From: an uncultured Alphaproteobacteria bacterium
GTDB taxonomy: Bacteria; Pseudomonadota; Alphaproteobacteria; CAAHEQ01; UBA3637
DNA length: 64,000 nt
Assembly (NCBI GenBank): GCA_944391735.1
Contig: CALXUR010000003.1
Coordinates: 12,287-76,286 of the forward strand
Reading direction: 5' to 3'
The position numbers and the translations under genes are program-made. Shown here piece by piece: positions 5,871 to 43,035 of this stretch (positions are counted from its first letter, which is position 1; each line of letters starts with the position of its first letter). Under the pieces are notes generated by a model. It was not told the DNA's origin and ran no database searches. It saw only the letters and a program-made list of their open reading frames with translations.

Positions 5871-7406
5871 ATGACCATTAAATTTTTACAGGAAAGGGAA
5901 ATGGGAATGAGAAAAAAGGACTTGCGTGTTGTAGGGAAGCCTTCGACAGAGGGGCATTATGTGTTACAGGATCCCCGGGTCAAGCCCGAGGATGACACAT
6001 TTATGAAAGAGACCGAGGATGCCCCGTCATCCGAGAGACGAATTTTAGGTGGAATTGGGGGATCCAGAAAGGGTGATGAATCGGGTCGATCGATGGTGGA
6101 AATGCTGGGTGTGTTGGCCATCATGGGATTGTTGGCTATCGGTGGGATTATGGCTTACCGATACGCTGTTACGAAATATCAAGCAAATGAGACGTTTAAT
6201 GAACTGCGCCGCCGGGTGGTAATTCACTCTCAACAGAGTATAACGGGCACGCCTTTATCTCAGGTGGAAATGGGAGAGACAACGCAAATGGGCTATCCGA
6301 TAGCCGTTGCGCGTGTGGACAGCGGCTTTTTTGAGTTAACATTACAAGACATTGACAAGCGTCTGTGTCAAGAAATGGTTCGGACGGGATGGACGTTGCC
6401 GACACAGACGCGTGTGAACGGTATTGTGGTAGGGACGAATCCGGCGGCTTGCGGGGAAGAGAACGTCCTTGTGTTCCGATTCCAGGCGGAAATGGGAGGA
6501 TGTAAAACGGACGCGGATTGTCCTTGCGGAACGTGCGCAAACGGGACGTGTCAGACGAGTTGCAGCAGCGGGGAAAGCTGCGTTAAAAACTTTGATGACG
6601 GGCAATATGTGTGTTGCCCGGGTGGAAAAGTAGTCGGCAACAGTTGTTGTGAACATCCGGGCGAAAACGGCACGTGTTGTGATGAAAATAGCAAATATTG
6701 TTGTCCGCCCGATAAGCCGTTGTATGCACAAGGAAAATGTTATGACTGTGAGGAACAGTTTGTGATATTCGGTGTGGATACAGCCAATACGGAAACACGA
6801 AACAAATATGTGCAAATTTGTAATCGATGTCAAGATCGATGGGTATCGTCATATCATAATTTCAGATGTTATAAGCCGTGTCCTGAAGGAGAGATAATTG
6901 ATTATACAGGAACTTGCCATACCTGTGATGATTCCTCTTTTTTCAGACTTGACGGCACAGATCCGTCATGGTATCTGAGTGCCGAGGAGTGTTTTAAATG
7001 CCCGGGTGTTCGCTTTGCCGGATCGGGAGATTACGGGCAATGGAGTAATTATGGAACAGGATGTTATAATTGCTATGATCCTGAACAATCTGTTGAATTC
7101 GGAACATATGGAACACCCAGTTACACAGGAGGAAGCCGGAAACATCAAAATGCTTGCGACGCCTGTCCCAACAGACGATCGATTAATGATCTTTATTGTG
7201 CCAAATACTGTGAGGATGGAAAAGTATGGGACAATGTCGGGCAATGCCATGCGTGCGATGAAGAGGCAGATTTTAACGTGCAAGGTGTTCCGGAAAACAA
7301 ATGTGCGTGTCCCGGTGTGCGGTATTTGGACGGCAATATGTGTAAAAAATGTCCCGAAGACCTATCCGCTTTAACACCCGAACAGCAGGCACAATGCGGG
7401 GGATAA
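5871..7406 (+). CDS. Prepilin-type (type IV pilin-like) protein with a large Cys-rich C-terminal region. The true start may be an internal Met.
   Basis: Motif ...GDESG|RSMVEMLGVLAIMGLLAIGG: a cleavage-type Gly, Glu at +5, and a hydrophobic helix. The remaining roughly 400 aa hold more than 50 Cys in CxxC/CC patterns. Confidence 0.6.
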   Translation: MTIKFLQEREMGMRKKDLRVVGKPSTEGHYVLQDPRVKPEDDTFMKETEDAPSSERRILGGIGGSRKGDESGRSMVEMLGVLAIMGLLAIGGIMAYRYAVTKYQANETFNELRRRVVIHSQQSITGTPLSQVEMGETTQMGYPIAVARVDSGFFELTLQDIDKRLCQEMVRTGWTLPTQTRVNGIVVGTNPAACGEENVLVFRFQAEMGGCKTDADCPCGTCANGTCQTSCSSGESCVKNFDDGQYVCCPGGKVVGNSCCEHPGENGTCCDENSKYCCPPDKPLYAQGKCYDCEEQFVIFGVDTANTETRNKYVQICNRCQDRWVSSYHNFRCYKPCPEGEIIDYTGTCHTCDDSSFFRLDGTDPSWYLSAEECFKCPGVRFAGSGDYGQWSNYGTGCYNCYDPEQSVEFGTYGTPSYTGGSRKHQNACDACPNRRSINDLYCAKYCEDGKVWDNVGQCHACDEEADFNVQGVPENKCACPGVRYLDGNMCKKCPEDLSALTPEQQAQCGG

Positions 7407-9778: not shown

Positions 9779-10309
9779 TTATCGTTGGCGTTGAGCGTTG
9801 AACGCTTGTCGGAGAAAAGTGGGGCGATTGTTTCCAATTAGAACGATATCGGCAAAAACAGATGCTATTTTGCCGTCTTTGTATTCAACTTTACGAATGA
9901 GGCTGCCATTCGGAGCATAGTTTGTTTTTTGCGACGATTTTCCGTTTTCATCGAATTGAATCCTTTTCTTTATTGTGCCGTCATCATAAAATTCTGTTAT
10001 ACGTCACGGTGTTCCGAGTGAAGAGCACAGGATTGTTCGGATCAATGTATGATTCTTATCAAATGTTTCCCGAGACAGGGGTAATTGGTTGAAACCATAT
10101 TCCGTTTTGGATTTTAATTCCCCCGAGGCATCATATTTCCATTTCGTTTTCAGTTCATTGTTTGAATCATACTGTGTGCGGGATAGAATATGACCGTTTT
10201 GATCGTATTCATTTTTAAAACGACTGAAAGCGTTGTGTCCCGATTTTGTTTTAATATTGCCGTTTTCGTATCGTTCTATGGCTATATTCGATTGAGATGT
10301 ATCTGTCAT
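9779..10309 (-). pseudogene. Fragment of an RHS/YD-repeat protein gene, frameshifted and truncated
   Basis: Two minus-strand frames give consecutive YD repeats (YENGNIKTKSGHN..EYDQNGHIL..YDSNNEL..YDASGELKSKTEY and FYDDGTIKKRIQFDENGKS..YAPNGSLIRKVEYKDGKIAS). Only about 175 aa survive. AT-rich. Confidence 0.55.
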
Positions 10310-12082: not shown

Positions 12083-12236
12083 GATATCATAAAGAAAAAC
12101 GATTATGAAAATCGTCTTTTATCCGGTTCAGGTTATTATTCAAAATAGAAGAGTGTCACAAAAGTGTCATTTGATTTTTGTATGCGTTTCGGGTATATAA
12201 TAAAACAGTTTTTTTAACAAAATGAGAGGAAATAAA

Positions 12237-13070
12237 ATGAAAACAGGTATTATGTCCGGTAAGAAAGGCTTGATTATGGGCGTTGCGAACGATCACTCCA
12301 TCGCTTGGGGGATTGCGAAAGCATTGGCCGATCAAGGTGCCGAACTAGCGTTCACGTATCAGGGGGAGACATTGGAAAAGCGGGTGCGTCCTTTGGCCGA
12401 ATCCGTCGGTTCCGATATTATGATTCCGTGCGATGTGTTGGATTCCGCTTCGATGGACGCTGCCTTTCGGACAATCAAAGACAAATGGGGCAAGATGGAC
12501 TTTGTGGTTCACGCCATTGCTTTTTCGGACAAGAACGAATTGAAAGGTCGGTATGTGGATACAACCGCCGCTAATTTCAGCAATTCGATGTTGATTTCCT
12601 GTTATTCTTTCACGGATGTTTGCCGTCGTGCCGCCGAATTAATGCCGGACGGCGGGTCATGCCTGACTCTGACATATTTGGGTGCGGAGCGGTATATTCC
12701 GAACTATAACGTCATGGGTGTGGCGAAAGCGGCGTTGGAGGCTTCCATCCACTTTATCGCGTTTGACCTGGGGCATCAAAACATTCGGGTTAACGCCATT
12801 TCCGCGGGGCCGGTTCGGACGTTGGCCGCGGCCGGTATCGGTGACTTCCGCCAGATTTTGGGTTGGACGGAAAACAACTCGGCTTTGTGTCGCAACGTGA
12901 CGATTGAAGACGTTGGCGGAACGGGTCTGTATTTGTGCAGTGATTTAGCATCAGGCGTAACGGGTGAAATCATCCATGTGGATGCGGGATACAGCCGTAA
13001 CGCGATGATTAATCCGAAGAATGCTCAAAAATCCGCGGAATTATTGAGTTCGTTTAAATTATCGGAATAA
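12237..13070 (+). CDS. fabI: Enoyl-[acyl-carrier-protein] reductase (NADH)
   Basis: GLIMGVANDHSIAWGIAK... with Tyr/Lys active-site region. RBS GAGAGGAAATAAA then ATG at 12237. Confidence 0.9.
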   Translation: MKTGIMSGKKGLIMGVANDHSIAWGIAKALADQGAELAFTYQGETLEKRVRPLAESVGSDIMIPCDVLDSASMDAAFRTIKDKWGKMDFVVHAIAFSDKNELKGRYVDTTAANFSNSMLISCYSFTDVCRRAAELMPDGGSCLTLTYLGAERYIPNYNVMGVAKAALEASIHFIAFDLGHQNIRVNAISAGPVRTLAAAGIGDFRQILGWTENNSALCRNVTIEDVGGTGLYLCSDLASGVTGEIIHVDAGYSRNAMINPKNAQKSAELLSSFKLSE

Positions 13071-13092: not shown

Positions 13093-13125
13093 GACGCCCG
13101 TTTTATGACGGGCGTTTGTTTTTGT
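13093..13125. terminator. Hairpin between convergent fabI and murD-like, a likely bidirectional terminator
   Basis: GACGCCCG-ttttatga-CGGGCGT followed by TTGTTTTT. Confidence 0.5.
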
Positions 13126-13145: not shown

Positions 13146-14405
13146 CTAAAGATCCGCCCAACGTCTGAAATCGTCTCCCCGTTCCGCAAAATTGGTATAC
13201 ATATTGTAACTGGGTGCCGCGGGGGATAATAAAATGGTGCCTCCCCGAGGGGTCATGTGTTGTGCGATATTAACGGCGGTCGGCATTTCCGATGTAATAC
13301 CGGTTTCGATGCCTGCTGTTTGCGCCATATCGGCCAATTTACTACCTGTATCGGGAAGGGTGACCAAACGGATTCGGTCTTTATGTTCGGCCATATAGGC
13401 GACCAAAGCGGTATAATCCTGTCCCCGATCCAAACCGCCGGCAATCAGCGTGATGGCCTGACCTTTATCAAGGGCTTTCAAGGCGGCGATGGCGGTTTCG
13501 GGGGTTGTTGAGATACTGTCGTCGACATAGGCAATGCCGTTCCGGTGTCCGATGGTTTGCAAGCGATGAGGCAGCGCGTGAAAGGTTTTAAACGCGTCAG
13601 CGCAAGCGGCCGGTTGCAACCCCAACAAGTCGACGACCGTCAAGACGGCGCAAGCGTCTTCGGCGTTGTGCAGACCGGGCAGGGGTAAATCCGATATCGG
13701 AAACAAAGGGAAGGCATCGTTATAGAACCACCCTTTAGAAATATGGATAGCCGATTCGGCGTTGAAATAAACCGCGGAAATATCCGATGTCAAGCGGGAG
13801 GTTTGATCACTTGTCGCATTCAGGACGGCTTGTCGCGCCAATCGAATCATGTGCAATTTATCTTCATAATACCGTTCGTGTGAGGTATGCCACTGGAGAT
13901 GTTCCGGATACAGATTGATTAGAACGCCTATGTCCGGGCGACCGGTTAAATCGGCGCATTGATAACTGGACATTTCGGCGACAATATAATCAGCGTCTGT
14001 ATCGACCAACGTTAACAACGGCACCCCGATATTGCCGCCCAACTCGACAGATTGTCCCAAATGTTTCAAGGTATGCGCCAACAGAGCCGAGGTTGTGCTT
14101 TTGCCTTTGGTGCCTGTTATGGCGATGACATGCGTTGTTTCTTTTTTGTTGGCAAAAAACAGGTTAGTGCCGGAGGTCACTGTAATGCCCTTTTGAACGG
14201 CCTCTTGTATTTCGGGGCGATACAGGCTGACCCCGGGAGATTTGACCAGAACATCACATTTTAAAATATCGGGCGTGTTGGCTTCCTCAATTTCGATTAA
14301 TTTAGCCGTCGGGCAATGATCGGATATAGCTTTCCAGGCGGTTTGACCCTCCTTACCCATACCCCAGATTCCGATTTTTTTATGCTCTAAATTGTGCCAA
14401 TACAT
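13146..14405 (-). CDS. murD: Mur ligase family, MurD-like UDP-N-acetylmuramoylalanine-D-glutamate ligase paralog
   Basis: ITGTKGKSTT P-loop, LGGNIGVPLL, EMSSYQ, LPHRLQ...NGIAYVDDSISTTPETAIAAL, LSPAAPSYNMYTNFAERG: MurD signature blocks. It is not in a dcw cluster context. Confidence 0.8.
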   Translation of the reverse strand: MYWHNLEHKKIGIWGMGKEGQTAWKAISDHCPTAKLIEIEEANTPDILKCDVLVKSPGVSLYRPEIQEAVQKGITVTSGTNLFFANKKETTHVIAITGTKGKSTTSALLAHTLKHLGQSVELGGNIGVPLLTLVDTDADYIVAEMSSYQCADLTGRPDIGVLINLYPEHLQWHTSHERYYEDKLHMIRLARQAVLNATSDQTSRLTSDISAVYFNAESAIHISKGWFYNDAFPLFPISDLPLPGLHNAEDACAVLTVVDLLGLQPAACADAFKTFHALPHRLQTIGHRNGIAYVDDSISTTPETAIAALKALDKGQAITLIAGGLDRGQDYTALVAYMAEHKDRIRLVTLPDTGSKLADMAQTAGIETGITSEMPTAVNIAQHMTPRGGTILLSPAAPSYNMYTNFAERGDDFRRWADL

Positions 14406-15699
14406 TTTCTGCCAGCTCCTTAGGTATTAAATGGGATGCGGCGGGGGTAAATATCAAGCCCTCCGCCGGAAAGGGAACACATGATTTCAATGCGTGAATA
14501 ACGGTGTCGTTTTGCCAATTCGGGCGTGCTGCCAACTGATGAAAAGCCCAGCGGGATTCATCGAATTCGCCGACACATTCAAACGGTTTGTGTCCGGACA
14601 AACCCAACAATTCACGATAGCCTTCAATTTGTTCGGCATCGTTGAGCGGATTGTTTCCGACAAGGCGAATCAAGGTATCTTTATCCATAAACGGTGCCAG
14701 GATTAAAAAGACGAAACGGCATTTATCACAGGTTCCGCACCAACGGTCAAGGCGTTTTGTTTTATCTAATTTAAAAGCTTTGTTACAGCTGGTAAACAGG
14801 GGAAAATAATCGGGGCACAAAGTGGAAAACAGGCGGGCGATATGGGCTTCGGACAGCGGGCGCAAAAGTGAGAAATAGCGAAAGTCCGGGGTTATTGTTT
14901 GTGTTATTTTGAAGAAGTCACGTTCAAAATCCAAAGATTTACTGTATTGATGATTAATGACCAGACTTCCCTGTATCAGGTTGCCGGAACTGGCCGACCG
15001 TTCACAGGACATGACAACATATTTTTTGTCATACAAAACGGCGGCAGCCCACAGGATAAATGCCAAAATGCCGGTAATCGGAACATGACCGTTATACACG
15101 TGTCCGGCGGTATTCAATTCGATCAGGCGCGGATCTATCCGGCGGCTTAAAACAAAAGAGGGCAGACCCGCGCTTTCCATACAATCACGTATCGGGCGCG
15201 GCGCGCCTATGGCGATTGTGGCGGCGGGTAAATCGGTTTGTTTGATGAGCTCAACGGTAACACAGGAATCTTTTCCGCCGCCGACGGGAATCAAGGCATT
15301 ATAGGGTAAACGGAGATCAATCGCCCGGCGTTGTGCGTTTTTATCCGAGGGAAAATGAATTTGACCTTGTAAATTTAAATTGTTTCTGACGGCAAATTCG
15401 CCCAATCCGTTTAAATAAAAACGGTTGAAAAAGGCGGCTTCATCGATGGTCAGCGGTTGCGTTTCCACAATTAGATTTGGGGGCAAAAAGGCCTTATAAT
15501 AACTGATCCCCGCAGCGATATGAAGCAGGTGGAAAATCTGATCCAAAACATATTTTTTGGCGGGGGATAAGTGAAGCGGTGCGTCCGGAAAAATAATTTG
15601 TTCGGAAAAGGTTTCATCGTTATCCACGGCATAGGTCAGAGTTAAAATTCCCGTTTCCGATGAAAAATCAACATTTTTATAATAAAAAGCCTTGCACAA
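14380..15699 (-). CDS. PP-loop (GGGKDS) ATP pyrophosphatase-family protein with a C-terminal CGTCDKC Cys cluster. Function unknown; candidate MurL-like partner of the adjacent MurD-like ligase.
   Basis: VGGGKDSCV PP-loop-like motif near residue 130. The C-terminal CxxCxxC recalls QueC-type zinc sites. The 3' end overlaps the murD-like start by 26 nt, so they form an operon. Confidence 0.45.
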   Translation of the reverse strand: MCKAFYYKNVDFSSETGILTLTYAVDNDETFSEQIIFPDAPLHLSPAKKYVLDQIFHLLHIAAGISYYKAFLPPNLIVETQPLTIDEAAFFNRFYLNGLGEFAVRNNLNLQGQIHFPSDKNAQRRAIDLRLPYNALIPVGGGKDSCVTVELIKQTDLPAATIAIGAPRPIRDCMESAGLPSFVLSRRIDPRLIELNTAGHVYNGHVPITGILAFILWAAAVLYDKKYVVMSCERSASSGNLIQGSLVINHQYSKSLDFERDFFKITQTITPDFRYFSLLRPLSEAHIARLFSTLCPDYFPLFTSCNKAFKLDKTKRLDRWCGTCDKCRFVFLILAPFMDKDTLIRLVGNNPLNDAEQIEGYRELLGLSGHKPFECVGEFDESRWAFHQLAARPNWQNDTVIHALKSCVPFPAEGLIFTPAASHLIPKELAENVLAQFRA

Positions 15700-15778
15700 A
15701 ATCTTTTTTCCTTTTACAATCTGAAATAACGTATATTGTATACATATTTTATCATTTTTTCAAGGGGAGAATGTGTGA

Positions 15779-16443
15779 TGTCTGTTATCTCAAAAATAAA
15801 AACGGCGAATGTGGTTTTTGTGTTATTGATGATTTCTTTGGGGGTTGTAGGATATCTGGCTTTCAGAGATGTGTTTCGAACGCCCGAGGAACAATTGGCG
15901 TATGGGATTGAAATGCTGGATAAAAAACAATATGGAGCGGCTGAACGGGCTTTGTCGAAGGCAACGGACGGCACTTCAAAAGAAACGGTTATTCAAGCGG
16001 CGTGGCGGTTGGGCAATTTATACCGGATCGGCGCGGACGGATTTCCCGTGAACGGTCCGAAAGCCGAGATGTTCTTGGAAAAGGCCGCTTCTTTAGGGTA
16101 TGCGCCGGCGCAATATGAATTGGCTTTGATGTATGACGTGGGGGACAAAATACCCGAAAACAGGCAGAAAGCCGTCGGATGGATGAATTATGCGGCTCAG
16201 GCCGGATTACCGGAGGCTTTATACGGTTTGGGCGTTTGGGCCGAGCGCGGATATATGGGGACACCGGATATGGGTAAGGTTATAACGTTATATAAAGCGG
16301 CGGCGACCAAGGGGCATATTAACGCGATGAAAAGTCTGATTGTTTTATATGGCGACGGGTTCGGCGGTTTTCCGCACAACCTTGAATGGTCGGCATATTG
16401 GTTGAATGAATTAAATAAAAAAGCAGAGGAACAAAAGAAATGA
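15779..16443 (+). CDS. Sel1-repeat (TPR-like) membrane-anchored protein
   Basis: RBS AAGGGGAG. N-terminal TM segment. Repeated AxxxLGxxYxxG Sel1 motifs. Confidence 0.7.
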
Positions 16444-20433: not shown

Positions 20434-21552
20434 ATGGATAAAAAACAAACCGCTAATCTAAGAAATCAATCTTGTCAAAATGAGTCGGGAAAATCGATGG
20501 TTGAAATGTTGGGTGTCTTGGCTTTGATGGGATTATTGGCTATTCTGGGGGCTAAAGGATATAATATGGCGATGGAACGTGTGGCGTCGACCCGGATTTT
20601 GAATGAAGTCAATCGACGCTCCGTTGTTTACGCACAACAGATGATGAGTCATACCGAACTGTCGGAATTGGATTCGTCAGAGATGCCCGAAACAATAGAA
20701 GGCGGATATGCTTTTTCAGCCCGGCCTTTGGATAACGCTTTTTTTACGATTACCGTTGAAAATGTGGAAAAAGAAGTCTGTGCTCACATGGTTGATTTGA
20801 ATATGAAAACGGCGTTACGGCTACGTGTTGACGGGCAGATTTCCACAGGGGACAGTCAGATTTGCCAAAAAAGCAACGGCACGTTGGAATATACATTTTC
20901 TAAATTGTTAACTCCTTGTGAGGATTGTTTGGATAATATAACGACTTGTTCTTCAAACGCAGATTGTGAGGCAAATTATGAGTGTAAAAACGGCGTTTGC
21001 TCTTGTGCAATTCCATGTGGTGAGGCGTGTTGTTCAAGCGGTGAGACATGTGTTAATGGAGCTTGCTCGGTTGTTCAGGGCTGCACCAGTGATTTAGATT
21101 GTGACAACGGTATTTGTTTTTCGGATGGCGTGTGTGGGTGCCGGAGTTGGCGTGATTGCAATGAGGAATCCTATTGCGTCTGGCAAGATAGAACGCATTA
21201 TACTTGCTCCGGACGAGCCGACATTGCCCCAGGCAGTGATACGGGACCCTTCGGATGGATGGCGTCCAGCGTTACCATGCGTCAGGAAACGGCGGCGGAT
21301 TTTTGTGATAAGTATGGCAAATCTGATCCAACGGCTGTTGAGGTTGGTATATCGAATTTAGATGCAAATGGATCAATGACACCACCCGATTTTTTGGCGT
21401 GGCTTGGTCAAGGGAATTATTGGATTCAAGGAACAGATCCTTGGGGAAAAGGGTCGCGAGCTCTTATCTACATACATCCAAATAAAAAAATGAATTGGGG
21501 TAGTTTTAATTTGGGATATTTTTATAATAAAAATTATGCCCTCTGTCATTGA
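20434..21552 (+). CDS. Prepilin-type pilin-like protein with a Cys-rich C-terminal domain, paralog of 5871..7406
   Basis: ...QNESG|KSMVEMLGVLALMGLLAILGAKGY prepilin-like N-terminus. The C-terminal half is dense in Cys (CEDCLDNITTCSSNADCEANYECKNGVCSC...). Confidence 0.6.
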   Translation: MDKKQTANLRNQSCQNESGKSMVEMLGVLALMGLLAILGAKGYNMAMERVASTRILNEVNRRSVVYAQQMMSHTELSELDSSEMPETIEGGYAFSARPLDNAFFTITVENVEKEVCAHMVDLNMKTALRLRVDGQISTGDSQICQKSNGTLEYTFSKLLTPCEDCLDNITTCSSNADCEANYECKNGVCSCAIPCGEACCSSGETCVNGACSVVQGCTSDLDCDNGICFSDGVCGCRSWRDCNEESYCVWQDRTHYTCSGRADIAPGSDTGPFGWMASSVTMRQETAADFCDKYGKSDPTAVEVGISNLDANGSMTPPDFLAWLGQGNYWIQGTDPWGKGSRALIYIHPNKKMNWGSFNLGYFYNKNYALCH

Positions 21553-29458: not shown

Positions 29459-30511
29459 TTATCTGCCCCGGGATTGAAGCAGTTTTGCCATAGAAAAGGC
29501 TTTATTATGAATTTGCTGTGTTTCTTTATCTAAAGTGGTATTATCTGTTTTATGAATACCCGTTTTATCCATTAGCTTTTGTTCCATATATGCTTGGATA
29601 CCATATGCATGTGTTTCCGAAGGCAACATCACATATAAATCCTTATAATTTTCAGATGTTTTATTGTCCAAGAGGTCTTCATAAACAGCGATATTTTCAA
29701 TATTACAGTCAAAAATACGGTTAATTAGAGGGTCGTCAAATCTTTTTTGGTGTTGTCGATGGTGTGTCCCCTCATGAAATAAAACGGATACCGCAAAAAA
29801 GTTATCACAATTTTGTAGCCGTTCTTCATTAAAATAAATTTTCCCCTTTTGATAATAGGCAGCATAGATGTGTGTATCTTCAGGCAGTCTATTTTTATGT
29901 TGTTGTGCTTTTTCTTGTTCCGGTGTGAAAAATTCAATTTCGGGTGCGGTTCCATAGATGTGTTTAAAAATTTCAGCGGCTTGTTTTAGTACTTCTTTTT
30001 TTTCCGGTAAAGATGTTTTATTCCAATTTTTTAATTTATTTGTTATTTGAGGTTGGGCGGCAATAAGGGTGGCATAGCTGTCGGCCAACTTTTTTTCATG
30101 ATCCCAAAAACGATTTGGAAAAGTCATTGTAAATAAACATATCCTTAAATTCTTATCATTTTTACGACAAATCCGTATTAAATCATCTAGTGTTTGTCGC
30201 CTTGGGAACAGCGCTTCTAAATAGTCCAATTTCTGTTCTAAAGATAATGTGGTGATTTGAGTCGGAGTTAGCGTTGAAAATTGTTCGACTTTTTGTAATT
30301 TAAGCTGATGATGGAGTCGATAGGTTTGAGCGTAGGTTTGAATTAGTATATTAAAGTCTTGTTGGGATATATTTTCCAACCGATTGTTTTGAATAATTTG
30401 ATTAATGCGTTGTGTATCTTTATCGGAAAAGGGAGTAAAACAGACACTCCCATCAGTATTCATCGTGATTTTACATCGATCCATTAAATCTTCAAATTCA
30501 TTAATATTCAT
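29459..30511 (-). CDS. Hypothetical protein with an HExxH (HEGTHH) zinc-metalloprotease-like motif. Low GC, probably horizontally acquired; candidate secreted effector.
   Basis: 350 aa with no signal peptide. Markedly more AT-rich than its neighbours. LFHEGTHHRQH motif. Lies between the ldcA remnant and the 3' end of a tRNA. Confidence 0.45.
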   Translation of the reverse strand: MNINEFEDLMDRCKITMNTDGSVCFTPFSDKDTQRINQIIQNNRLENISQQDFNILIQTYAQTYRLHHQLKLQKVEQFSTLTPTQITTLSLEQKLDYLEALFPRRQTLDDLIRICRKNDKNLRICLFTMTFPNRFWDHEKKLADSYATLIAAQPQITNKLKNWNKTSLPEKKEVLKQAAEIFKHIYGTAPEIEFFTPEQEKAQQHKNRLPEDTHIYAAYYQKGKIYFNEERLQNCDNFFAVSVLFHEGTHHRQHQKRFDDPLINRIFDCNIENIAVYEDLLDNKTSENYKDLYVMLPSETHAYGIQAYMEQKLMDKTGIHKTDNTTLDKETQQIHNKAFSMAKLLQSRGR

Positions 30512-35097: not shown

Positions 35098-36360
35098 TTA
35101 TTTGATAAAGTGACGTTCGCTTCTGGTTGTCAGACCTTTTCGGCGGGTTCCGTATCCGGCTGGGTTTGCGTCAGCGTATTGGTTTATTTGTCCGGAACGT
35201 TGTCGGACAATATAATTGTTGACTTCTTTCATTTGTTGAAGGGTCAAATTATTAAGGGCATTAATGGTTTGTGATCCCATGATGCCGTCTTCATCTACTT
35301 GAAAAGAAGTCAATTGATTAATACCTTGTTGCACCCATTGAATCGGCTCTATCGGAGAATGGTTTGCCAAAAGGTCAAATAAGGTCTTGGCTAACTTTTC
35401 ATTTTTAATTTCTTCAATGCGGTAGGCATCGTAATAATCCATTTTATAAATGGTTGTTGCCTGATCCCTTGTTAAATCCTTAACGGTAGCGGGATATGTT
35501 CTTCCCAAAGTCGGATGGGCCGCTTTAAAACGATTTAATGAACCTTGAATAACACCCATATTGGTCGGTTGATCTATTCTAGTCGGTCTATCTTCATAAC
35601 CGCCCTCTTCCTGATAGACAGATGACAACAGGCGATCAAAACGGGTGGTGGAACCGTAGCCCAAAAGTTCATTCATCTTATCGACCGTCAGGTCATCGGG
35701 GCGCAAAATGCCGGTTCTATCCAAACCGTTATCTCGTTGAAAAGCCGAAATGCCGTCAAACAGTTGTTGGTCGGGATAGGGGGTTATTCCCTCTGACTCC
35801 GGCAGGTAATAGCCCAAGTCGTATAAGGCCTCTTTTGTCGAGATAACGTCTGTGGGAGAGGCGAAAGAGGGGCTGACGGATTGTGTGATAAAAAAGCCCT
35901 GCGCGTCGGTATTGTTATCTGTTAAAAAGTTCGGTTTTATCGGTGGTAACGACGGGTATTGATTTGCATCAACCGTTACGGACGGTTGCGAAATGGTCGG
36001 CTTTTGATAATAATTCGGCGCGGGCAGAGAGTTTAAATCCCGAAAGGCTCGATTTAACAATTTTTCGTTTTCTCGGGCATTTTTTTCGGCACGTTTGCTT
36101 TGGCTTGTTTCTTCCCTATTTTTTTGCTGTGCTTCTTTTTCATCATGGTCTTGTCCGCAGATGCGGTTATAGGGTTTGACATGCTTACCCTTTCGCATAT
36201 GGCCGGGAACGTGAATGAGTTTTTGGCAATGTCCGGATGTGTCGTGTCCTTTGGAACTGAGTTGTCGCTTCGGGATAATTTGTGCCTGTCCCGTGAAAGA
36301 GCTCAGGTTTTGTAATATTTTGGCGATATTGATAAATGCGGTAAGAGATTTTTGATCCAT
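35098..36360 (-). CDS. Polymorphic toxin-like protein: conserved His/Cys-rich N-terminal domain, S/T/P/Q-rich linker, GH108 lysozyme-like domain and PG_binding_3
   Basis: N-terminal GHDTSGHCQKLIHVPGHMRKGKHVKPYNRICGQDHDEKEAQQKN is shared with 38438..38773, 40284..41024 and 36841..37245. The C-terminal half has the EEGGYEDR...DQPTNMGVIQ catalytic block of glycoside hydrolase family 108 and a DEDGIMGSQTINALN PG-binding segment. Start taken as Met18 of the track ORF (RBS AAAGGAAAAGC). Confidence 0.6.
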   Translation of the reverse strand: MDQKSLTAFINIAKILQNLSSFTGQAQIIPKRQLSSKGHDTSGHCQKLIHVPGHMRKGKHVKPYNRICGQDHDEKEAQQKNREETSQSKRAEKNARENEKLLNRAFRDLNSLPAPNYYQKPTISQPSVTVDANQYPSLPPIKPNFLTDNNTDAQGFFITQSVSPSFASPTDVISTKEALYDLGYYLPESEGITPYPDQQLFDGISAFQRDNGLDRTGILRPDDLTVDKMNELLGYGSTTRFDRLLSSVYQEEGGYEDRPTRIDQPTNMGVIQGSLNRFKAAHPTLGRTYPATVKDLTRDQATTIYKMDYYDAYRIEEIKNEKLAKTLFDLLANHSPIEPIQWVQQGINQLTSFQVDEDGIMGSQTINALNNLTLQQMKEVNNYIVRQRSGQINQYADANPAGYGTRRKGLTTRSERHFIK

Positions 36361-36495
36361 GCTTTTCCTTTCAATAAAAAAAGCCCGCCGCAAGAGATTC
36401 CGGACAGGCATAAAAAAATCGGGATATACTTGTCCCGATTAACTAAAAAAAGTATAGCATAAATTAAATGAAAAGTCAAGGAATATTTTCCTATT
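36361..36495. repeat. Conserved 5' leader/promoter element of the toxin genes, copy R1. Other copies: 37261-37388, 38774-38918, 41025-41165.
   Basis: AATAAAAAAGCC(C/T)G(C/T)CG..AGATTCCGGACAGGCATAAAAAAATCGGGATAC recurs immediately upstream of every toxin start codon. R1 and R4 also share AAAAGTCAAGGAATATTTTCCTAT. Confidence 0.6.
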
Positions 36496-40283: not shown

Positions 40284-41024
40284 CTAGTATTTAACTTGAA
40301 CAATAACATCATATCCATTATTTTGAAACCATTTTGCAAAATCAGCCATTGCCTTTGTTAGATCAATACATCCGGCAGAACCTGGCGTTAAGCCTCCATG
40401 AATAGAAAAATTATTTCTTCCATATAGATTAGTATCATTCGCTGGTGTTAACCAAATGCGTTGTTCTCCCCATGCAGCTGTTCCACCTCTCCACTGTCCG
40501 CCACCTATTGAAGACTTAAATTTTTGCCATGCTCCCAAATTTTCCCACTTTTGAAAATCGCTGATTTTTGCAACATAATTGTCTTCGGGAAGTGGACCAT
40601 AATTTTTTAAATCCTGATAATTTGGATGTTGAAAGCCCGGTCGTCCGGATACACCTTTCCATTCCTTAATAATTTCTCCATTTTCGTGCAGGGTAAGACT
40701 TTTACCATTAAAAGATAAATACTGCCCATTTTTTAGGTTTAATGGAGTATTCCATTGTGTATATGGATTATTTTTTTGTTGAGCCTCTTTTTCGTCGTGG
40801 TTACGGCCGCAGATGCGTTCATAGGCGTTGACGGGTTTGCCTTCGCGGCTATGAGCGGGAACATGTATCATTTTTTGACAATGCCCCGATGTGTCGTGTC
40901 CGTTTTGAGAATTGTCGCTGTTTCCGAACAGAAAAGCGAATAGATTTTGTTGACTGTTATTTCTCGGATTGTTTTCGTCGGGTGCTGGCACACCGATTGC
41001 ATTTCCGATGGATTGTGTTTCCAT
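40284..41024 (-). CDS. Polymorphic toxin-like protein: conserved His/Cys-rich N-terminal domain and Tlde1/DUF2778-like (YkuD L,D-transpeptidase-fold) C-terminal domain
   Basis: N-terminus METQSIGNAIGVPAPDENN...NGHDTSGHCQKMIHVPAHSREGKPVNAYERICGRNHDEKEAQQKN. C-terminus has ...GRPGFQHPNYQDLKNYGPLPEDNYV and FSIHGGLTPGSAGCIDL (His...SxGC catalytic motif of the YkuD/Tlde1 family). Confidence 0.6.
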   Translation of the reverse strand: METQSIGNAIGVPAPDENNPRNNSQQNLFAFLFGNSDNSQNGHDTSGHCQKMIHVPAHSREGKPVNAYERICGRNHDEKEAQQKNNPYTQWNTPLNLKNGQYLSFNGKSLTLHENGEIIKEWKGVSGRPGFQHPNYQDLKNYGPLPEDNYVAKISDFQKWENLGAWQKFKSSIGGGQWRGGTAAWGEQRIWLTPANDTNLYGRNNFSIHGGLTPGSAGCIDLTKAMADFAKWFQNNGYDVIVQVKY

Positions 41025-41242
41025 GGTCTTTTTCCTTTCAATAAAAAAGCCTGTCGGATCAGATTCCGAACAGGCATTAAAAAAATCGGGATACATTTAT
41101 CCCGATTAACTGAAAGATATCATATCATAAATCAGATTAAAAGTCAAGGAATATTTTCCTATAAATAGAAATATTTTCTTTATTGACTTTTGTCGGGAGG
41201 CGTGAAATACTGAACGAAAGTTGACGATGAAAGGAGAAGGTT

Positions 41243-41919: not shown

Positions 41920-43035
41920 CTAAAGCGTGTCATCAGATGGAACGGGGTGGTATTGTCCGCCGGACAAAGGTTGGGAAACACCGGTTGTGTCCGGAAAGGT
42001 AATCGGCAGTTCCATTAGGGAGCGCACCGCCAAAAACGCGTATCCGGCGGCGTCCAGATTATAGTTCGGCATATCCGCTTCCGCAATGGTTTCCGTATTG
42101 TTGCCGAGGGCTTGCTTTAACCACAATACCAACGTCGGATTTAAGGTTCCGCCGCCCGTTAAAATCCATTTAACCGGTTTATCGGGCAAGAAAGCCTGAG
42201 CCCGAACGATACTTTGAACGATAAAAGCCGTCAACGTAGCCGCTCCATCGGCGGGCGAACACCCTTCGACCTGTTCCAAAAGAGGGGTGAAATCGTCTCG
42301 ATCCAAAGTTTTAGGAGGTGGTTGAAGAAGGTAAGGTGTTTTCAGTAAATAATCCAGCAATCTTTGATTGACAGTGCCTTTGGCGGCCCATTGTCCATCG
42401 AAATCCATATCCATGCCGGCATGGCGACGAAGCCAGCGATCCAGAAGCAGACATCCGACGCCGATATCAAAAGCGCGCAGTTCGCCCAACTGTCCGATGA
42501 ATGTGAGGGTTGAAATCCCGCTGAGCGATACAATGCACAGAGGCTTGGGTTGTGTTCGCGTGACAGCCTCCAGGAATGTCGGTAAGACGGGACCGCCCGT
42601 TCCGCCGGCTTTCAAGTCCGTTTGAATGAAACGGTCAATAACCGGAATCTGTAATTTTCGGGCAAGTGTATCGCTGTGTCCCAGGCTGATATCCAATCGA
42701 TCTGCGGTGTGGTGGCGCACGGAATGACCGGAATAACCGCAAATATCGATATGTGGAACATGCCGTGCTGTTTTATTAATCAATTCTTGCGCGACGGCAA
42801 GATGTTCCGCCGTGATACGGTCATCTAATGATTTTAACAGGTTCATGTCCGTGAAATCTTCGGGATATGACAGCTTTAAAATATCATCTCGTAATTCCGG
42901 CGAATAAGGGCGCGTTAGCGTCAGAGGTTCTTCCAAAATATCCAAGCCGTCCGTTTTCAAAATACAGGCGTCGATATAGACGGCGGATGAATCCGAATAA
43001 ATACCGAGAGCTGTTTCAGGTTCCAATGTTTTCAT
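41920..43035 (-). CDS. anmK: Anhydro-N-acetylmuramic acid kinase
   Basis: 371 aa ASKHA-fold sequence with AnmK blocks (DIGVGCLLLDRW, LTGGGT). Confidence 0.8.
   Translation of the reverse strand: MKTLEPETALGIYSDSSAVYIDACILKTDGLDILEEPLTLTRPYSPELRDDILKLSYPEDFTDMNLLKSLDDRITAEHLAVAQELINKTARHVPHIDICGYSGHSVRHHTADRLDISLGHSDTLARKLQIPVIDRFIQTDLKAGGTGGPVLPTFLEAVTRTQPKPLCIVSLSGISTLTFIGQLGELRAFDIGVGCLLLDRWLRRHAGMDMDFDGQWAAKGTVNQRLLDYLLKTPYLLQPPPKTLDRDDFTPLLEQVEGCSPADGAATLTAFIVQSIVRAQAFLPDKPVKWILTGGGTLNPTLVLWLKQALGNNTETIAEADMPNYNLDAAGYAFLAVRSLMELPITFPDTTGVSQPLSGGQYHPVPSDDTL

Follow-up and report, generated by a model that had tools for sequence, protein, structure and literature searches.

The 64,000-nucleotide stretch of DNA analyzed here (the window; positions 12,287 to 76,286 of contig CALXUR010000003.1, assembly GCA_944391735.1, from an uncultured Alphaproteobacteria bacterium) carries two overlapping minus-strand genes whose products we assign to the MurD2/MurL system of peptidoglycan synthesis (Feng et al. 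2017; for reviews, see PMC8788868 and PMC5808125). With a probability of about 0.9, murL and murD2 form a self-contained bicistronic operon that supplies the D-Glu residue at position 2 of the stem peptide without free D-glutamate. The initial annotation had put forward a D-Glu pathway of this type as a possibility, and the proposal has gained support from the full-length MurL homology of one protein, the MurD2 specificity residues of the other, the conserved adjacency and fusions of the two genes, and the PP-loop fold predicted for MurL.

In the proposed pathway, MurD2, a Mur-family ADP-forming ligase whose catalytic residues are intact, would join L-glutamate to the cell-wall precursor. MurL would spend one ATP on adenylating the alpha-carboxylate of the terminal L-Glu in an AMP-forming reaction, and the adenylation would acidify the C-alpha proton, so that L-Glu could be inverted to D-Glu on the precursor itself. 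Overlapping reading frames and an internal ribosome-binding site would couple the translation of the two proteins. Whereas the canonical route inverts free glutamate with the help of MurI, the MurD2/MurL route performs the inversion after ligation, on the nucleotide-peptide, and costs one additional ATP. Both reactions have been demonstrated in the literature for the X. oryzae, Micromonospora and Salinispora enzymes; for the window pair we infer the same two activities, and an organism that has no MurI.

Family assignment of the two proteins

The 439-residue product of the upstream gene matches the MurL profile NF041275 with an E-value of 2.9e-132 and a score of 441 bits, its residues 3-433 aligning with profile positions 8-443 of 447. 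The comparison with MurL recommended by the initial annotation thus returned a full-length match. Precomputed Pfam annotations of an identical protein list PF26299 (MurL_N) and PF26298 (MurL_epimerase_C), as they do for all 120 listed homologues; a separate Pfam scan of the 439-residue protein returned no family, and the two domains appear only in the precomputed annotations. The internal GGGKDS PP-loop that had been singled out earlier occupies residues 140-145, and the C-terminal CGTCDKC cluster lies, as described, within WCGTCDKC at residues 320-327, where C321, C324 and C327 join C305 to make up the Cys cluster. All motifs of the MurL family are present in the protein: the PP-loop GGGxxS, SCN...WCxxCxKC and PFECVGE. 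Across 40 MurL sequences at 34-53% identity, G140, G141, G142, S145, C305, W320, C321, C324, K326, C327, P372, C375 and E381 are invariant, and so are H205, E233, H250, K254 and E259.

The 419-residue product of the downstream gene contains the Pfam domains Mur_ligase_M and Mur_ligase_C and scores 321.5 bits (E-value of 9.7e-96) with TIGR01087, the profile of canonical MurD. This match and the NF041275 match of its partner show that both open reading frames are real genes and not chance. To map its residues, we aligned the protein with HMMER to E. coli MurD (PDB 1e0d) position by position. The two enzymes have the three-domain Mur ligase architecture in common (PDB 1e0d/1uag) and are 29% identical. 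The catalytic or substrate-site residues are conserved: K102, N125, E144, H169, K183 and T300 correspond to E. coli K115 (the P-loop lysine), N138, E157, H183, K198 (carbamylated) and T321, and E. coli S415 and F422 are matched by the same residues.

Five substitutions related to the Glu site set the window protein apart from canonical MurD. Glu168 and Arg327 take the place of Asp182 and Lys348 of E. coli MurD, two residues near the bound D-Glu that bear on specificity. A third specificity-related position, Lys319, is Ile298 in the window protein, and Ala414 and Leu416 are replaced by Pro398 and Tyr400. In X. oryzae MurD2, Glu197, Arg358, Pro433 and Phe435 stand for E. coli Asp182, Lys348, Ala414 and Leu416, and the E197D/R358K double mutant switches completely to D-Glu (PMC8788868). 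Conversely, the K319T mutant of E. coli MurD gains the use of L-Glu (PMC8788868). As the X. oryzae P433A and F435L mutants keep their L-Glu specificity (PMC8788868), we treat the Pro and Phe positions as accessory markers.

The same signature recurs in the MurD-like proteins encoded next to murL. Among 78 aligned reference loci, which take in Stenotrophomonas maltophilia and Xanthomonas, genera with a characterized MurD2, the equivalent positions hold Glu in 75/78, Ile in 76/76, Arg in 74/75, Pro in 72/74 and Phe or Tyr in 74/74 cases. The window protein scores 223-535 bits against all full-length murL-linked homologues and, over the same span, 183 bits against S. agalactiae MurD and 149 bits against E. 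coli MurD, these two being the only canonical controls in the comparison. By its sequence, then, the 419-residue protein is classed as MurD2 and not as a canonical MurD.

The window pair agrees in its protein families and gene order with the X. oryzae MurL (XOO_1319) and MurD2 (XOO_1320) and with SmltD, the MurD2 orthologue of S. maltophilia. The two X. oryzae locus tags had been swapped in the initial annotation, which gave XOO_1320 as MurL (PMC8788868). The PP-loop and Cys motifs of MurL and the Glu/Arg/Pro and aromatic signature of MurD2 are common to the X. oryzae and window systems. The systems differ in their sequences, with an identity of about 41% for MurL (to both the Stenotrophomonas and the Xanthomonas protein) and 36-40% for MurD2, and in their hosts, the window coming from an uncultured, apparently gut-type Alphaproteobacterium.

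MurL fold and predicted chemistry

The AlphaFold model of MurL, computed from 40 diverse homologues, is confident, with a predicted local distance difference test score of 94.7 and a predicted template modeling score of 0.94. Of the solved structures, it most closely resembles QueC (2pg3 and 3bl5, with TM-scores of 0.61-0.65 when normalized to the target) and the defence proteins QatC and Cap9, which are QueC-like, followed by TtuA, MnmA, NAD synthetase-like proteins and argininosuccinate synthase. At the sequence level, the MurL family profile aligns its vpiGGGkDS segment with the TtuA loop vavSGGKDS at an E-value of 4.7e-4, the alignment being confined to the PP-loop segment. A search of PDB sequences with the single MurL protein detected no MurL structure; a carboxypeptidase N match with an E-value of 0.05 in that search was taken as chance.

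Judging from the model, MurL is a member of the PP-loop ATP-pyrophosphatase superfamily with a QueC-like core, in keeping with the AMP-forming ATP pyrophosphatase fold first suggested by its GGGKDS motif. As in QueC, QatC and Cap9, the PP-loop core is followed by a C...CxxCxxC cluster. The likeness is limited to the core, since MurL is twice as long as QueC and has an extra N-terminal domain (approximately residues 1-125) and a C-terminal helical region. Furthermore, none of the QueC, TtuA and MnmA families in Pfam or NCBIfam is matched by the MurL sequence.

QueC binds Zn at its Cys cluster and adenylates a carboxylate. By analogy, C305, C321, C324 and C327 would form a QueC-like structural metal site, and C375, H205, H250 or K254 is a candidate for the base that inverts the C-alpha of the adenylate. 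The outcomes of the two enzymes differ: epimerization for MurL, nitrile or amide formation for QueC. MurL needs one ATP and Mg2+, yields AMP and works only in the L to D direction (PMC8788868, PMC5808125). The reviews state that MurL has no known conserved domains, and adenylation of the alpha-carboxylate has been proposed (PMC8788868, PMC5808125). A PP-loop ATP-pyrophosphatase fold would account for the published AMP-forming stoichiometry.

Conserved pairing and competing explanations

Scanning a single genome of each species with a sequence pattern yielded at least 589 confirmed MurL-encoding stretches, the best 80 of which were analyzed as loci. In 78 of these 80 loci, which span several phyla, a MurD-like gene lies downstream of murL on the same strand. 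It follows murL directly or within about 500 nucleotides in 77 loci and about 1.3 kb downstream in one (L067). Of the two exceptions, one locus (L014) stops at a contig edge, and the other (L013) offers about 700 nucleotides of downstream sequence, which gave no match. The two genes overlap by 1-29 nucleotides in 63 of 77 unfused pairs, with starts estimated from alignment; the most frequent overlaps are 20 nucleotides (all listed Xanthomonadales with that value), 14 nucleotides and 26 nucleotides. The Xanthomonadales reference loci that we examined thus have a start/stop overlap as well, of 20 nucleotides as against 26 in the window, and exactly 26 nucleotides are common to the window and five gut-type Alphaproteobacteria loci. 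In locus L009 (CAVDQP010000029.1), a contig of 10.9 kb that is assigned to the Firmicute Holdemanella biformis, there is an Alphaproteobacteria-type murL-murD2 pair with 50% and 47% identity to the window proteins and a 26-nucleotide overlap; this is probably a contamination of the genome bin and not a Firmicute MurL.

In an exhaustive search of representative sequences, 2,642 clusters at 50% identity matched MurL with an E-value of at most 0.001, and 1,175 with an E-value of at most 1e-30. Five representatives of 830-915 residues were confirmed to be end-to-end fusions of MurL and MurD, a classic indication that the two activities work together. A different fusion was seen in P0222 (918 residues), where an aspartokinase (residues 2-473) precedes MurL (residues 478-916); this arrangement may tie MurL to the supply of the next stem-peptide residue through the aspartate/diaminopimelate branch. 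Two further proteins, P0193 (636 residues) and P0225 (554 residues), have N-terminal extensions of approximately 110-190 residues that no NCBIfam model matched.

All-versus-all clustering of the flanking open reading frames of the 80 loci was swamped by shadow frames of genomes rich in guanine and cytosine (GC). The few real clusters were D-Glu cyclase, dienelactone hydrolase, OsmC, fumarase, RmlA-like and glucokinase, and none of them consisted of genes of the dcw cluster, the usual home of canonical murD. About ten loci from soil-type Alphaproteobacteria, Acetobacteraceae and Stellaceae (L015-L020, L025, L031, L035 and L046) have two D-glutamate cyclase-type genes that immediately precede murL-murD2 and share its strand. 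In L018 (4279-5996) these match the D-glutamate cyclase family PF07286 with 223 bits and the D-glutamate cyclase-like C-terminal family PF14336 with 226 bits. One possible logic is that D-Glu from wall turnover is disposed of as 5-oxo-D-proline where MurD2 cannot use it. The window contains no D-glutamate cyclase genes.

Several points weigh against assigning the window pair to the MurD2/MurL system. The first is that the MurL score of 441 bits falls short of the curated equivalog cut-off of NF041275, which is 700 bits. When we calibrated the profile, murL of Stenotrophomonas, Xanthomonas and Frateuria scored 772-819 bits, and murL of Solirubrobacterales, Chloroflexia, three other Alphaproteobacteria lineages, Micavibrio and Gracilibacteria scored 394-455 bits, a band that holds all non-Xanthomonadales murL tested and the window protein. 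Because the lower-scoring murL genes are all followed by a MurD-like gene, the 700-bit cut-off delimits the Xanthomonadales and not the function. Secondly, the ligase exceeds the cut-off of canonical murD (321.5 versus 211.95 bits for TIGR01087), since a name given by this hidden Markov model alone does not tell MurD from MurD2. Thirdly, the window protein has Tyr400 in place of Phe435 of X. oryzae MurD2; at this position, the murL-linked homologues have Tyr in 26/74 and Phe in 48/74 cases. Lastly, the defining genomic correlate of the system, the status of murI, D-amino-acid aminotransferase and canonical murD, was checked over about 82 kb of a single 175-kb contig.

Within those 82 kb, which comprise the window and 10 kb on each side, no murI, no D-amino-acid aminotransferase gene and no canonical dcw murD were found. 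Likewise, mraY, ftsW, murG, murC and ftsZ are absent from the window and from the 10 kb past either end, which agrees with the earlier description of a MurD homologue beside fabI and outside any dcw cluster. Canonical murD is located between mraY and ftsW, whereas the window gene is located between fabI and murL.

The extent of this coverage leaves room for murI or a dcw murD elsewhere in the genome, and the pair could then be genuine but redundant: the organism would also possess a canonical MurD together with either MurI or a D-amino-acid aminotransferase, and the operon would serve as a backup or under particular conditions. We consider this unlikely, as the MurD2/MurL genomes studied so far have no D-Glu-forming genes and their MurD2 gene is the one annotated as MurD (PMC8788868, PMC5808125). 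Furthermore, the window pair is set among core housekeeping genes, with typical local GC content, and not in an island. The initial annotation was mistaken in holding that a sole murD in the genome would speak for a simple relocation: since the X. oryzae MurD2 gene is the one annotated as MurD, a MurD2/MurL system would not be expected to come with another murD inside a dcw cluster.

An ordinary murD that has moved from the dcw cluster to the side of an unrelated QueC-, TtuA- or MnmA-like PP-loop enzyme modifying tRNA or nucleobases would also score above the TIGR01087 cut-off, and its partner's closest solved folds would be those of QueC and TtuA and one Pfam scan would give it no family, just as we observed. 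This explanation is effectively refuted by the full-length MurL match of the partner, by Glu and Arg in place of Asp and Lys at the specificity positions of the ligase, by the pairing kept in 78 of 80 species loci and by the fusion proteins. The membership of the PP-loop protein in an unrelated tRNA-modification family, which the initial annotation had named as the outcome speaking against its proposal, was not borne out by Pfam or NCBIfam. Equally improbable is an action of the pair on another substrate (another position-2 amino acid, a glycopeptide outside peptidoglycan or a gamma-glutamyl compound), which the divergence from the characterized enzymes and the low-similarity MurL relatives in fungi, amoebae and cyanobacteria (PMC5808125) would allow, but against which stand the conservation of all Glu-site and catalytic residues with the characterized MurD2 clade, the invariance of the candidate MurL active-site residues across the family and the fact that no biosynthetic-cluster genes were found near murL-murD2.

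Locus, genomic setting and distribution

The two genes assigned to MurD2/MurL overlap by exactly the 26 nucleotides first reported for them (Table 1), and the identical two genes were called by an independent gene caller on the metagenomic scaffold of 175 kb from which the window comes (ENA ERZ28613925 scaffold_72). The overlap likely results in translational coupling. Together with the ribosome-binding sites, the promoter-like site upstream of murL and the terminator-like hairpin downstream of murD2 give the locus the look of an operon of two genes that is complete in itself. Both the promoter and the terminator are matches to a consensus only, and such promoter-like sites are no more common here than in shuffled sequence.

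Table 1. Positions of the murL-murD2 locus, its expression signals and selected other genes in the window.
Feature	Position	Strand	Remarks
murL	14380..15699	-	439 residues, TTG start; from the open reading frame listing
murD2	13146..14405	-	419 residues, ATG start; from the open reading frame listing
murL/murD2 overlap	14380..14405	-	26 nucleotides; murL stop codon TAA at 14382..14380
Shine-Dalgarno-like AAGGAG of murD2	14416..14421	-	within the 3' end of murL, 10 nucleotides before ATG
Ribosome-binding site AAGGA of murL	15713..15709	-	9 nucleotides before the TTG start
Promoter-like TTGAAA-17-TACAAT	15735..15763	-	10/12 consensus matches; about 36 nucleotides before the murL start, within the divergent intergenic region
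Terminator-like hairpin	13094..13115	-	8-bp stem with 6 G-C pairs, then a T-rich tail; 30 nucleotides past the murD2 stop, between murD2 and fabI
fabI	12222..13070	+	convergent neighbour of murD2
Sel1-repeat gene	~15778..16443	+	divergent neighbour of murL; followed by pepN
GH108 lysozyme with PG_binding_1	35098..36411	-	borders the lowest-GC stretch
Tlde1-domain protein	40284..41096	-	borders the lowest-GC stretch
anmK	41920-43035	-	anhydro-N-acetylmuramic acid kinase

The reference genomes nearest to the window by MurL (68-49% identity) are metagenome-assembled genomes, and their names point to an origin from the human gut, the rumen and rabbits. Besides the Sel1-repeat gene, the window encodes a MORN-repeat protein (10004-10309), and an ankyrin-repeat protein is encoded just past it (L086:7142-8044); these eukaryote-like repeat proteins are consistent with a host-associated lifestyle. 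The anmK gene indicates that peptidoglycan is recycled in an organism that probably cannot re-use free D-Glu through MurD2.

The GC content falls to 0.355-0.373 between 36 and 40 kb, compared to about 0.45 in the rest of the window. The region from the lysozyme gene to the Tlde1-domain gene that border this stretch may represent the remains of a prophage or an island of effectors; an exact-protein look-up of the lysozyme gene product returned no record. Sizeable genes with no Pfam match occur at 5871-7406, 20434-21552 and 29459-30511 (501, 372 and 350 residues). The GC skew is strongly positive and nearly uniform over positions 1-64000 at about +0.1 to +0.25, with most genes on the plus strand, and drops where minus-strand genes cluster; at 14-16 kb, over murL-murD2, it is 0.09. 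The window seems to be part of a single replichore in which murL-murD2 occupies the lagging strand.

The window pair is the known MurD2/MurL system in a new host, not a new kind of system. For the window itself, this means an ordinary and well-explained housekeeping operon. As the reviews already list Alphaproteobacteria (Devosia, Pelagibacterium and Parvularcula) among the hosts (PMC8788868, PMC5808125), it will come as no surprise to a specialist. What the analysis adds concerns the breadth of the family, a clade-specific annotation cut-off and the assignment of a QueC-like fold. Neither these three nor a link of MurL to the PP-loop or QueC fold was found in the searchable literature, which omits most subscription journals and in which the two reviews of the Dairi group (PMC8788868, by Ogasawara and Dairi, and PMC5808125) were the only papers on the system to come up; Pfam already has MurL families.

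The reviews place MurD2/MurL in 'relatively few genera'. We found murL-murD2 pairs in gut-associated uncultured Alphaproteobacteria, Micavibrio, Chloroflexia, Solirubrobacterales, Sericytochromatia and the Candidate Phyla Radiation (Peribacteria and Gracilibacteria). On balance, we lean slightly towards a broader picture in which the system is far more widespread than the reviews state and may be the sole D-Glu route of a whole gut clade of Alphaproteobacteria, and in which MurL would be a QueC-like PP-loop enzyme that works by adenylation and has, besides the invariant Cys375, a Cys4 site. If true, such an enzyme would offer a concrete mechanism for ATP-driven one-way epimerization.

There are also consequences for annotation. 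Because NF041275 is tuned to the Xanthomonadales, MurL orthologues from other groups have been deposited as 'hypothetical protein' or 'endonuclease domain-containing protein', the NCBI names of the close homologues P0073, P0084, P0093, P0111 and P0120. Hence, MurL is systematically under-annotated outside the Xanthomonadales, while the ligase beside it goes by the name of an ordinary MurD that adds D-Glu. Before an incapacity to make D-Glu is inferred from the absence of murI, a genome should be checked for murL-murD2. MurD2/MurL has been put forward as a target for narrow-spectrum antibiotics, the argument being that only Xanthomonas, Stenotrophomonas and a small number of further genera possess it (PMC8788868). 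Since intact pairs are found in uncultured gut-type Alphaproteobacteria and in several other phyla, inhibitors of this kind would affect a wider range of organisms than has been assumed.

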